From assembly GCA_951406725.2 (NCBI GenBank), contig OX597814.1, positions 160,208,001-160,272,000 on the forward strand: DNA of 64,000 bases, in the 5' to 3' direction. Made by a program: the position numbers and the translations under genes. Below the pieces are notes generated by a model. The model made no database searches, had not been told where the DNA came from, and saw only the letters and a program-made list of their open reading frames with translations. Positions 195 to 58,074 of this stretch are shown here, in pieces (positions within the stretch are counted from its first letter, which is position 1; each line of letters opens with the position of its first letter). Source of the DNA: Octopus vulgaris. Its lineage: Eukaryota.

Positions 195-510
195 ATATTG
201 TTATATTTCAGGACGGTCAAATTCTTGCCAAATAACCACACGCACTATATATGTATATTCGTTCTGCACTTCAAATTTTATAATTTTTCTTATCTTATAG
301 CCTTTGTCTGGGAATCTTACGGCACACATCCAGTGACCTCTTCAGCAACTCTCCATCCTACGTATTTCTTTCTATTCTATTAAGTCCATTCTGTCTTTCA
401 AGAAAGACAATGGATATGAAATAGGAACAATAATAAATCTGAAGCGAAGAACGAATAAATAGTGCGTGTGTTTATTTGGCAAAAGTGACCCTCCCGAAAT
501 ATAATAATAT
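195..510. mobile_element. Fold-back element with ~110-bp degenerate inverted arms (195-309 / 405-510) and a decayed hammerhead-like core; probably Penelope-derived
   Basis: atattgttatatttcaggacggtcaaattcttgccaaataaccacacgcactat matches the reverse complement of atagtgcgtgtgtttatttggcaaaagtgaccctcccgaaatataataatat; minus strand 345-317 reads CTGAAGA-GGTCAC..GTGTGCC-GTAA. Confidence 0.6.
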
Positions 511-513
511 AAA

Positions 514-613
514 ATATATATATACATATATATATATATATATATATATATATATATATATATATATATATATATATATATATATATATATATATATATA
601 TATATATATATAT
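514..613. repeat. (TA)n microsatellite
   Basis: Direct reading. Confidence 0.95.
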
Positions 614-2912
614 AAATATATAAGTATTAATATGAGCATTATGTAATCTTTATGATCCTTTTAATTCTTATTAAAATGAATATGTTTCCTTAATGATGTC
701 ATCTGTATTTTAGAAGCCTGTTATTGAACACAGCGTTTATTGAAGACTCAGTGTGTGATTTCTCAGAATTTAGCTACTAGATGCAGCAGGTTGAGTGGCT
801 ATGTGTTAGATGACTGTTGAACAAAATTGTTTCTTTTTCATCACTCCGTTCCTATACATATCTTCAGTGAAGGTGGTTGTACTATCAAGCTAGACCAATA
901 TATTAGGTGAAATTGTCTTCTCTAGAAACAGTGTGAGTTTTGATTTTATCGTAACTGCAAGATTTGACTTATTTATTTGATATTTTTCAGTTACATTTTA
1001 AAATATCAACATTTAATCACCATTATAATACGCAAACACACACACATTTATGGATATATAAGCACATACATATATATGTATATATTTACAGATATGTATT
1101 ATAATTTTATGTATGTATATATACACACATATTGTGTGTATACATGTATATTATATGTATATATACATATATTAAATACACAAACAGATAAATGAATGTA
1201 TATATGAGGCAAAAAAGAGAATGACTTTCCCCAAACACAATAATATATATATGTATGTATATATGCATATATATATATATATATATATATATACACACAC
1301 ACACACACACACACACACACATATATATATATATATATATATATATATATATATATATATATATATATATGTATATGTATATATATACATATATGTATAT
1401 ATATGTACATACATACGCACATATACATAACTCCCTATATTTGTATGTATGTGGTGTGCTTGTATGTGTGTGTGCATGTATTTATGTGCATATATATATG
1501 CATACATTCAACAGCGTTTAATATAATCAAATTGGCAGGTTATATTAAGACCTAAACCTGTGTTAGTGTAAAATCCAAGACACCCATACTGACTGTATGA
1601 TAAAGGTAACACAGTATCACAATGACTTTTGTGACATGACATAGAGTCACCCAAAGCAAAGCTCATTGGTTATTACAAACGGTTGAAAAATAATCATTAT
1701 TATGGCTTGGCCTGACGTGTTTTTATTCAGATTGACCTTTCTGTTCACAAAATGCATTCACAATAGTTAAAAGTCTCCATGACCACCTCCTATTTCAGAG
1801 ACTTTGCGATTACATGTGCTCCATCTTGATTATTCTTAAATCCTTGTGCAATATTGGTAGATGACCGTTGATTCTATGTTGAGCTCATTCGCTTTTTTGA
1901 CAAGGCTTCATAATTTTTGCCGCTGGTTTTCTTGTAATCCTCTTCATCAGGCAAAAATCTGATGGAGTTGCCGGTTTAGCCACCAACAAACCAACCATGT
2001 AACAGGTTGTACTGGATTATACATCACGAGTACCTCACAAGGTGTGAGTCTGTGCATATGTGTGCGTATATTTGTGTCCACACATACATATTTTTGAGTG
2101 TGTGTATATATATATATACTTACATATATGCTCCCATACGTACATATATCCTTACATATATGCACACACACGTACACATAAACATTTACACGCATACATA
2201 CAAATGGATATATATATATATATATATATATATATATATATATATATACTAAGAAGTGTATGCAAGAATCAACGATGGAGTATGTGCGCGATGGTAAGTA
2301 TAGTTTAAAGTGTCAGCAAAATCTCATTCGTGTCTAACGAAATCTTTAGGTCACGATTGGAATGTCTTTGGTCATAGGTCTTTTTAATTAAGGCTGACCC
2401 CTGTCACACAAAAGTAAGAGCAACAATAACAACAGCAGGAAGAGCAATACCTTTACATGAAGGGACAAATATGTACAGAACTTCACATAGAACAAGGTTC
2501 AAAATTTAAATACAGTAACTTCACAAAAAATTTAATGAATCAAAATAAGAAAAATTCATACATACATACATACACTCAAACACATATATATCCATACACA
2601 AATGTATTTATGCATATATACATATATACATACATAAACGTATTAAAATGTATATTATACAGTATACATACAAGCGTGTATATTATGTATATACATATGT
2701 ATATACATATGTATATATATATAAATACACACACACGCACACACAAACACACACACATACACACACACATATCGATGTGCTATTTTGTTATATTTTATCA
2801 TTAATGATAAAGTTGTAACTTTATCATCACTTTCACCACATTCGTCATCATTTTTATATGGACAAGATATTATCACTTAACTATTTCACTACTACCCTGT
2901 TGATAAGATATC

Positions 2913-54918: not shown

Positions 54919-56634
54919 ATATATATATATATATATATATATATAAACGTCACAGTAAGATACTCGTTTGATTTTTCTGCTTTCTCTACATAATGTATAT
55001 ATGTACTACAATAGGCTTTACTGACGAGGTGTAATGAAGCTGAAATATGTGCGTTGCTTTCACCACTTAGTTTAAAATCTGATTCACTACATTATCTTAT
55101 TTTCTATATTTACTAGCAGTGCAATTGATTGACTCTGTTGTATCTATATCGATTGTTTTTCTTTTTAGATTTTAAGCATCCATCCATACTCTCTAACCCT
55201 CTAGCTGGTGTTCCAAGTTTGCGAAAGACAATAAGGGACGAACAATGGCAAGGAGTGAAGCAGTATGTTTACTTCTGCGAAATTCTATGGCGAGAGGTGG
55301 TGTGACACTTTCGTGTTATGGTTATCGCGGTCGAAATGTAGATGATGAATATGCGTTTCAGTTATTGCTGACGATCCACTCACACTTTTTCTGTCTTAAG
55401 TTGTACATCTGAACGTACTTAAAACGTAAAGATTTGCATATGAATACGTGATTTTGTGTTTGTTTGTGTGTATGTGTCTGTGTGTATAAATATATGTACA
55501 TACACGTATATGTTATATATATATATATATATATATAGGCTTGAATTGGAGGAATGGTCCCTACATAAGACCTCAATGGTTTCGACATCTGTCAAGCTAT
55601 CTATCGATATGCTGGTCGGTCTCTCTGACCAACCGATTATCAGTCAATCAATCAATTAATCAATACATACATATATACATACATACAGACAGACAGACAG
55701 ATAGACAGACAGACAGACATACGCATACGTTATATATGTGTATGCAATGTAATTATGAATATAAGCATAATGCACAATATATGTATGTATGTACGTATGT
55801 ATGCATGCAGGTATGTATGTATAGGTATGTATATGCATACATATTACACAACTCTGTGTATATGTGTATGCATATGTGTATGCATAAATGTACTCATTTC
55901 TTCGAGAATAAAATTCATTTCCTAATCATCTAATACACATATATAAGCATACATATTTCGATAAATTATATTTAGATATTTTCGCTATGACTCATAGAAA
56001 ACAATATGATGGTATATGATTAAAAAAAGAGTAAGGCATTTTATTGGAATTTTGAAAGTCTATTCAGTTGTGTGTGTATGTGTGCGTGTTGTGAGTGTGT
56101 GCTTATAAATGTATATTAATATTTCTTATATATATGTGTATATCTGTGTGTGCGCGCATATGCATGTATATTCATATATGCACTCTTAGAGGTTGCATAA
56201 GTGCATATATATATGTTTTTGCATATGTCTGTATGCACACATATTTATATAGACGTACACATACACATACACACACACGCATATATATATATATATATAT
56301 ATATATATATATATATATACACGCATACTGATAATTATTAAGAATACTTCGTTGAAGGGCTTGCAATAACTGAGCATTTAATGTTAGTGTGGATCTTTAG
56401 TGATAACATTAGCAAATTTATTGTTGAAGATTAAGATGATTAGAACTTTATATATTCATATACATACATACTTAGATACATATTTATATATTTATCTGTG
56501 TTTGTGTGTGTGTACACAGAAATATACGCACATCTGTATATGATTAAAAAATATCGCTTATTCAGACTTATCGAGATCTAGCCGCATCTATTCCGCGGTA
56601 CTTCTCGCATTTTTAGGCTAAGGGATTTTGGGCG

Positions 56635-57480
56635 TATGAAAGCTCTCAAGAAGGCATTGTTTCTGATGTCAACAGCTAATAATTATCTCTGATCTCCAAC
56701 AAAATATCGCTAGCTATTTTAGTGTCTGAAACTTAATTGTTAGGCTTAGCCTGTAGTTGGGACTTCCAACAAGTTAGGGAGGGGCTTTATCTCTAATGTT
56801 CTAGTTATTGGAGTACTTTCCAATCTACATTGTTTAAATTCTTCAGCGAATTGCAACGTAAAGGTGGAAGATTTCTTGTCAGTTGACCTGAATCTGTGTG
56901 GATTCTTGTATACTGTCTTTCGAATCTTTTCGTGATAAATCTTATCTAATACATTCCCATAACATCCGAAGTTGTTCTAGAAGTTCTATAAATCCTCCCT
57001 TCGGGCAGGTTCGATTCTCTGAGAGATTTTGTGCAATTATGAGTTGGCTGTAAAGGTAAAAGCTGACATTGTGAATGTTTTCGGTTGAGTTGAGTGATTT
57101 TAGAGGCGGTGGCATTTAGCGAGAAATAACTCTTATTAAAGTTATTTTGGTTAAAGAGCTTGTATTTGTGCATCAGTGGAAAATTTTGCTTTACTGCAGA
57201 TGGGAACACATGGCAATATAGGTGCCTAAGTTTATGCTATATTGTGAATTAGATCAGGCTATCTTCATCCTACAGGTTCTTTTCTGTCATGTGTGTAGGG
57301 GGATTGTTGTTGGTATTACAGCATCTTGCTGTATCATTATATATGGGTGGCCTTGTTAAAAATGTACTTGTCTTAGAATAGATCGAAGACTATTACTTAT
57401 TCCAGCAGCAAAGTCTCTTATAATGTCTGAGAATTTCTTTCATGTCAGTATATGACATCTGTATTTATCTTTCTTCTGAA
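56635..57480 (-). mobile_element. Decayed Penelope-like element, C-terminal (GIY-YIG-region) relic
   Basis: Broken minus-strand frames: FRSTDKKSST..SLKNLNNVDWKVL..C*HQKQCLL and YTDMKEILRHY, resembling PLE motifs SFR..STxLS..LK..IxWxIL..CRH..LL and SYSCMxNMxxII. Confidence 0.5.
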
Positions 57481-57860
57481 AGTTAGCCAACGTTATTTTG
57501 GTGCTATTCATGAGAACGTTCGAGATATAGCTTGAACGGTTTCATATTATTATTCAGAATGTTGAACAATTCATTAGGCTGGTGTTGAAGTTTAACACCT
57601 TATCAGAATGCATTCAGGCTTTTTGAAGACCTGAATATGCGGGATACCACTCATGTGTTTCAAGTCCGTAATTGGCTGTAGTATTCCCTGTGATCTGTTT
57701 CTTGCAGAATAATGCATTCTGTGACATCTGCTTCGTTACGCTTTCAGATTTTTTTCGTGAGGCGCATTAATCTTGTTTATATATTCATACATGCATATAT
57801 AGTTACACACGCGTGCACACCCGTAAATATATATAAATGTTTTATGTTCTTTTAGTCAAG

Positions 57861-58074
57861 ACAATGCATGTTATAAGAAATAATAAAAGTCGATGGTATG
57901 TACTTTTACTTCGTATTTCAATATTTCGGAGATAGAAACCCTTCTTCAGGAAATCTTTGGAAAAACAGTGTTGTAAACTGACTCCTCTGAGGAAAGGATA
58001 CTAAACCCAAAATATTGAAATACATGATAATATAAAAGCCATCGACTTGACTTATTTCTTATAACTTGCATTGT
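57861..58074. mobile_element. Fold-back element with ~88-bp inverted arms, each carrying a hammerhead-like core
   Basis: acaatgcatgttataagaaataa..gtcgatgg..gtatttcaatattt / aaatattgaaatac..ccatcgac..ttatttcttataacttgcattgt. Confidence 0.75.
57915..57954 (-). ncRNA. Candidate minimal type-I hammerhead ribozyme
   Basis: AUUUC-CUGAAGA-A-GGG-UUUCUAUC-UCC-GAAA-UA-U-U-GAAAU: perfect 5-bp stem I, intact core, palindromic AAUAUU stem III. Confidence 0.6.

Follow-up and report, generated by a model that had tools for sequence, protein, structure and literature searches.

Does a short fold-back element that carries a hammerhead ribozyme motif move as a unit of its own, or is it what is left when a longer retroelement inserts in truncated form? 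This question is raised by a stretch of 64,000 nucleotides (nt) from Octopus vulgaris (contig OX597814.1, positions 160,208,001 to 160,272,000 of the forward strand), here called the window. A sequence-only reading of the window had described four fold-backs, E1 (195-510), E2 (4266-4506), E3 (14069-14245) and E4 (57861-58074), and a hammerhead motif (24025-24060) in a short solo fragment, E5. Its lead proposal was that these are ribozyme-plus-hairpin mini-elements, mobilised as units by the enzymes of Penelope-like elements (PLEs); its alternative was that they are independent, extremely truncated PLE insertions. According to our analysis, E1 to E5 are probably one-off, very short 3′-end insertions of several unrelated PLE families; the hairpin would be a side product of insertion, and the hammerhead would have been carried along as a passenger from the terminal repeat of the element. 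What is shown for E2 is that its 3′ ends at (TA)n are fixed, that the inner junctions vary and that the master sequence is longer.

Fold-back elements of the window

The window has a GC content of 34% and consists to about 21% of simple repeats; short interspersed nuclear element (SINE)-like repeats are present in many copies, together with decayed fragments of long interspersed nuclear elements (LINEs). As microsatellites swamped a plain repeat search, repeats were determined by masked self-BLAST, which re-found all four fold-backs. Each of them has head-to-head arms. Folded as minus-strand RNA, they reach -115.8 kcal/mol (E1, z-score -10.1), -154.3 kcal/mol (E2, -25.0), -94.7 kcal/mol (E3, -13.8) and -84.7 kcal/mol (E4, -12.5), and none of 100-200 shuffled versions was equally stable. 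The four fold-backs are thus present where they had been described. They had also been called mutually unrelated, and indeed none of the ten pairs among E1 to E5 beats shuffled sequences at p<0.05 (the lowest p is about 0.065).

All five elements have an end at most 8 nt from a (TA) run of at least four units, a context found at only 1.7% of unmasked positions. The TA context reported for the fold-backs is therefore real, but it had been attributed to three elements while all four have such an end. E1 to E4 are a selection, since four of the eight non-SINE fold-backs of at least 90 bp in the window lack a CUGAnGA box.

E2 and E1 have the same asymmetric layout

The anatomy of E2 is that of a truncated element with an inverted partial copy attached to it. 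On the minus strand, arm alignment and contig loose ends delimit a one-sided 3′ tail of about 67 nt (4199..4265), which ends in (TA)n and is common to the family. It adjoins the long arm (4266..4407), which is 5′-truncated at 4407 while the family runs on with other sequence, as indicated by loose ends behind this position. A complete minimal type-I hammerhead is located within the long arm (4300..4360, minus strand; identified by descriptor, fold and family alleles). At the fold point there is a junction palindrome (4391..4425, centre 4408) with 17-bp arms and one mismatch, evident from both the fold and the arm alignment. The inverted arm (4409..4506, plus strand; arm alignment) has no tail and ends in (TA)n. 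Its first 17 bp repeat the fold point in inverted form; it then omits 44 nt including the CUGAAGA box and restarts after a few shared bases.

E1 repeats this layout, with a junction palindrome, a short arm that lacks the box and a tail on the long arm. The one-sided 3′ tail (145..196, minus strand, boundary approximate) is about 50 nt long according to arm alignment and sequence, and ends at a (TATG)n/(CA)n tract. The long arm (197..399, minus strand), a truncated 3′ end whose hammerhead is decayed, was delimited by fold, descriptor and arm alignment. The junction palindrome (385..414; fold and sequence) leads into the short inverted arm (400..510, plus strand; self-BLAST and arm alignment), which ends in (TA)n. 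Due to their one-sided tails, E1 and E2 reach past the coordinates first given for them (about 145-196 and 4199-4265, respectively).

Copies of the E2 family differ at their inner junctions

We aligned public contigs from four of 24 listed runs to positions 4141-4504 at 80% likeness, an analysis that covers the E2 family only, E2 being the element in the best state of preservation. The runs contributed 2467, 8028, 6717 and 1011 aligned contigs, and the results described here cover 15 of 62 joints, 24 of 708 loose ends and 40 of 76 variant rows. No RNA run is named among the 24; the run with 1011 contigs is guessed to be RNA, and it has a profile like that of the DNA runs and is uninformative on transcription or cleavage.

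The E2 family is very abundant, and its last 210 nt or so are observed. The summed depth is highest towards the 3′ end (1-2 x10^6 in two runs) and declines through about 3 x10^5 within the hammerhead and some 7 x10^4 at positions 4388-4400 to roughly 3 x10^3 at the junction found in the window. As summed depth does not equal copy number, only the trend of these values is used. Contigs that depart at 4407, exactly at the fold centre, into a common different sequence number 19, 32 and 33 in three DNA-type runs; the fold centre of E2 is therefore the truncation point of a longer element. The loose end at 4407, 30 letters in length, closes with an 8-letter word that recurs near the tail end and may represent a tandem junction or a chance match.

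At the other side, loose ends at about 4215 and about 4260 enter (TA)n in all four runs and represent tailed and tail-less 3′ ends. At 4215, the (TA)n consensus is supported by 67, 167, 177 and 36 contigs in the four runs.

The 15 listed joints are all different, with one contig per run each and a depth of 9-79. Ten of them connect arm to arm, three remove part of the long arm and two switch strands. When two arm-to-arm joints from a further listing are included, the left inner ends of the twelve range from 4268 to 4396 and the right ones from 4293 to 4342, in coordinates of the long arm. No contig spanning the entire E2 stretch was found among the listed pieces; one contig spans 4306-4422 with four differences, but it reaches too little beyond the centre to qualify as a bridging contig. 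The depth gradient, the loose end at 4407 and the diversity of joints together establish a fixed 3′ end and variable 5′ truncation for this family.

Because the joints differ and the family continues past the fold point, a fixed transposing unit is not supported for the E2 family. The sequence-only reading had itself named breakpoints that differ at every copy as the sign of one-off truncations, and this is what we see, for the E2 family only, in the listed joints. Its lead proposal thus loses support for this family, while its alternative of independent, extremely truncated PLE insertions gains support from the E2 family junctions and from the insertion anatomy.

Hammerheads are retained in the family and predicted to be blocked in the hairpin

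A CUGAnGA box had been claimed for each of the four fold-backs and is present in all of them. The boxes start at 345, 4355, 14158 and 57949 on the minus strand and, a second one in E4, at 57987 on the plus strand; these are five of 27 such sites in the window. A strict descriptor of the minimal type-I hammerhead has two matches in the 64 kb, both on the minus strand of fold-backs (E2, 4355 to 4305; E4, 57949 to 57920). Shuffled versions of the window give 0.22 matches on average. As two of 60 shuffles also reach two matches, the count by itself is only modest evidence. Rfam gives no hammerhead: there are 0 matches at the gathering score, and local scans of E2, E4 and E5 show no hammerhead model either; in a scan by E-value, the 150 listed of 655 matches are nearly all microsatellite matches to microRNA models.

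In E2, stem I is formed by 4360-4356 and 4304-4300, followed by the core (4355-4349), a long stem II, GAAA at 4317-4314 and a palindromic stem III. Cleavage is predicted after 4305. Cores consisting of box, stem and GAAA had been reported for the better-preserved elements, and in E2 and E4 they are part of a complete minimal type-I hammerhead. In E1, the box CUGAAGA (345-339) is followed by stem II (338-321) and by GUAA where GAAA is expected, and E3 has no GAAA. The motif described as a fifth minimal hammerhead does exist (24029-24056, plus strand, in E5), but its core reads CUGUAGA instead of CUGAnGA, with U at core position 6. The terminal hammerhead is hence complete in two elements (E2, E4) and incomplete or variant in three (E1, E3, E5).

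Among the 40 listed variant rows of the E2 family, none affects the CUGAAGA box, GAAA or positions 4300-4309. In a reading by hand, both stem I and the inner part of stem II pair better with the majority alleles, namely those at 4356 (99%) and 4328/4329 (88-97%). The family therefore keeps its hammerhead.

The hairpin itself does not appear to serve the ribozyme. In the computed fold of the full E2 fold-back, every hammerhead helix has a pair probability of 0.0. Forcing the E2 hammerhead is calculated to cost 52.5 kcal/mol in the fold-back, compared to 10.5 kcal/mol in the isolated arm; the corresponding values for E4 are 27.1 and 5.9 kcal/mol. The E4 motif is predicted to fold poorly on its own as well (pair probability about 0.03), as expected for a dimer-dependent motif. 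The hairpin is thus predicted to block hammerhead folding, and the resulting hairpin units are predicted neither to self-cleave nor to move again as units.

Selection or editing at the RNA level was also considered. G-U-type mismatches between the arms show no strand bias (14 plus versus 19 minus), and this possibility was rejected for want of signal. The plus/minus counts for the individual elements (5/7 in E1, 3/2 in E2, 1/4 in E3 and 5/6 in E4) include the poorly aligned centres.

The elements resemble published insertions of Penelope-like elements

An inverted truncated copy, a palindrome at the junction, a one-sided tail, a microsatellite target and a minimal hammerhead are features which in combination match published insertions of endonuclease-bearing (EN+) PLEs. 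An adjacent inverted 5′-truncated copy, a one-sided tail and a bias for microsatellites have been described by Craig et al. 2021 (PMC8557442), and the same layout is given by Goubert et al. (PMC8969392). Palindromes at the junctions of inverted PLE copies, for which self-priming was proposed, have been reported by Arkhipova et al. 2013 (PMC3846280). Complex insertions of the canonical EN+ PLEs Penelope/Poseidon, Neptune, Nematis and Hydra, in which a pseudo-LTR (pLTR) is combined with the inverted copy and the tail, share with the window elements the head-to-head copy, the junction palindrome, the tail at one end, the variable 5′ truncation and the AT-rich or (TA)n target. They differ in that the window elements have no open reading frame (ORF) and comprise only the last 100-250 nt.

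The hammerheads also fit. For metazoan PLEs, opposite-strand pairs of minimal hammerheads at a distance of 100-700 bp have been ascribed to truncated copies (Cervera and De la Pena 2014, PMC4209133). The same work noted an additional base ahead of stem II, and low cleavage even of dimers. Shared with these motifs are a helix I of 4-5 bp, a tiny palindromic helix III, the extra base before helix II (E4, E5), a long helix II (E2), the spacing of opposite-strand pairs and the occurrence of many unrelated families in one genome. Differences are an unpaired base in the 3′ strand of helix II (E2 copy), the U at core position 6 of E5 and the incompleteness of E1 and E3. Canonical hammerheads are reported to be absent from Naiads, which argues against an assignment of E2 and E4 to the Naiad clade.

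The insertions may have arisen as follows. Both strands of a target that is rich in AT, or consists of (TA)n, would be nicked by a PLE protein with reverse transcriptase (RT) and GIY-YIG domains. Reverse transcription would be initiated at set positions a short way downstream of the hammerhead and would end prematurely, at a point that varies. For the second arm, which is inverted, either the cDNA would snap back or priming would occur from the other target strand, and the two arms would be joined via a microhomology of a few bases. Such a scheme would yield the junction palindrome and the skipped segment of E1 and E2 as well as the two facing hammerhead motifs of E4. Several steps have precedents: in experiments with a purified PLE protein, both strands of AT-rich DNA were cut and extended, reverse transcription began at two positions of the RNA that delimit the tail, and the hammerhead was dispensable for insertion in vitro (PMC11167929). 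Both snap-back and second-strand priming are compatible with the data presented here.

Several observations weigh against truncated PLE insertion. None of the 109 ORFs of the window has a PLE domain according to Pfam; two have weak matches, both of LINE type and below curated cut-offs. No ORF with RT plus GIY-YIG was found joined to any arm, neither among the window ORFs nor in scans of public contigs, so that membership of E1 to E5 in PLE insertions is only probable. Outside of TA runs, no target-site duplication of at least 8 nt exists for E1 to E5, and within TA runs duplications are not callable. The tails of E1 and E2 (about 50 and 67 nt) exceed the published 30-40 bp. Part of the depth drop towards the centre of E2 may be caused by divergence of stem II in the window copy at the 80% threshold. 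Five of the 15 listed joints occur in two runs; they are read as probably the same locus in related samples, but may also represent recurrence at low copy number. The best run contains a fraction of 0.47 of the words of the query and none reaches half, so the runs may represent relatives rather than this species. Finally, the evidence on recurrence covers E2, in the listed part of its joints and loose ends. Two words of the E2 family from the window have no exact match in metagenome, viral or prokaryote genome contigs.

Alternative explanations

It has to be considered what kind of element the E2 family represents. There is a small chance that it is a very high-copy non-coding hammerhead RNA which parasitises PLE enzymes and forms no tandem arrays. 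Its many private junctions, with two fixed 3′ sites, snap-back and microhomology, would then be a genome-scale record of two-strand priming by the PLE RT, open to direct read-out.

A related explanation, to which we assign a slim chance, also treats the hairpins as by-products of insertion but takes the master of the E2 family to be a non-autonomous, non-coding, retrozyme-like hammerhead RNA that is moved by PLE enzymes. The family is very abundant, its last 210 nt or so are seen and it has no link to an ORF, and non-autonomous PLE derivatives have been described (MRC1, PMC8557442; preprint 10.64898/2026.07.22.740005). Animal retrozymes without long terminal repeats (PMC7229834; 10.64898/2026.07.22.740005) resemble the window elements in being non-coding, a few hundred bases long and linked to PLEs, with a type-I hammerhead and strongly self-paired RNA. 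The 8-letter word shared by the loose end at 4407 and the tail end could mark a tandem junction, but this match is within chance. However, retrozymes are head-to-tail tandems with a canonical hammerhead in each unit (PMC7229834) and circular RNA, while the window has single head-to-head copies with variable junctions and with hammerheads of the minimal PLE type, some of them broken. Masked self-BLAST detected no tandem copies at the five loci, and no high-depth return joint occurs among the 15 of 62 joints listed.

That fixed ribozyme-plus-hairpin mini-elements are transcribed, self-cleave and are re-inserted as a whole by PLE enzymes, as had been the lead proposal, is very unlikely. A design common to four unrelated elements is in its favour, as are the joints which occur in two runs, and the junction evidence covers E2 only. 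But the listed junctions of the E2 family are all different and have a depth of at most 79 compared to about 10^6 for the family, the hammerhead helices are predicted to be abolished in the hairpin, two of four cores are incomplete, and the arm mismatches lack a G-U strand bias.

Miniature inverted-repeat transposable elements (MITEs) and foldback DNA transposons are short and non-coding, with long terminal inverted repeats and TA context. An origin of the elements from such transposons, with CUGAnGA boxes occurring by chance, is extremely unlikely: long inverted arms, TA context and a descriptor count only modestly above chance would fit, but the boundaries are unfixed, the ends asymmetric with one-sided tails, the inner breakpoints variable and E2 truncated from a family that extends beyond its fold point, and both strict matches and five of 27 boxes are inside the four hairpins, with core and helices kept in the E2 family.

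Truncated PLE insertion, as the preferred explanation, has consequences beyond this locus. Caution is required in annotation, where the short remains of PLEs may pass for MITEs or for a novel class of ribozyme elements. Several uncatalogued PLE-type ends and hammerhead variants become known from a repeat-rich animal genome, although published supplements may list these families. A repeat annotation of Octopus vulgaris reports 31 recently active Penelope-like families, and ribozymes are unmentioned in the available part of its text (PMC13282606). In the literature searched, we found no paper that describes a class of recurrent PLE fold-back mini-elements, or octopus hammerheads. The many short junctions of the E2 family would allow snap-back and two-strand priming to be counted in an assembly.

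E3, E4, E5 and an additional hairpin

E3 (14076..14238; self-BLAST, fold, descriptor and arm alignment) is TA-rich on both sides. It has the box CUGAUGA (14158-14152, minus strand) with a short stem II, and the fold point is the box itself.

E4 (57857..58078; self-BLAST, fold and arm alignment) carries a hammerhead motif on each strand, and its arms extend loosely to about 57836-58100. The complete minimal hammerhead (57916..57953, minus strand; descriptor) has its core at 57949-57943, an extra A before G10.1 and a 4-nt palindromic stem III, with cleavage predicted after 57920. The second motif (57987..58024, plus strand; descriptor) is decayed, with a CUGAGGA box and A at G12.

E5 is a solo fragment which ends in (TA)n (23992..24149, plus strand, bounds approximate; sequence, descriptor and arm alignment). 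Its hammerhead-like motif occupies 24025-24060. E5 is embedded in a microsatellite and has a decayed LINE RT fragment as its neighbour.

A further element, absent from the list of the sequence-only reading, was detected by masked self-BLAST and a direct-repeat test (52503..52637, plus strand). It consists of a near-perfect 49-bp hairpin (52503-52604) without hammerhead box and a one-sided tail of 33 nt (52605-52637), which is within the published range of 30-40 bp for PLE tails. An exact direct repeat of 13 bp flanks hairpin and tail (52491-52503 and 52638-52650; chance 16/3000). The hairpin at 52491-52650 has the appearance of an even shorter insertion of the type of E1 to E4.

Fold-backs without CUGAnGA box are also located at 59538-59638, 40382-40636 and 18597-18687, and the one at 59538 has an end that adjoins (TA)n. 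A kinship between E2, E4 and the hairpins at 52503 and 59538 was considered, but 28 comparisons gave only AT-rich matches of 15-18 letters, which are not relied on.

Other repeats of the window

Decayed LINE-type RT and zinc-finger fragments (22965-23905 and 26050-26289, both minus strand) have weak Pfam matches to RVT_1 and zf-RVT, below cut-off. Two head-to-head copies of an abundant two-part SINE-like repeat form a long imperfect inverted repeat at 53615-54454. A 167-bp repeat, distinct from the main SINE-like family, occurs in opposite orientation at 25289-25455 and 50477-50643 with 91% identity. A tandem array at 38211-38610 has a period of about 56 bp, and its copies are about 92% identical.

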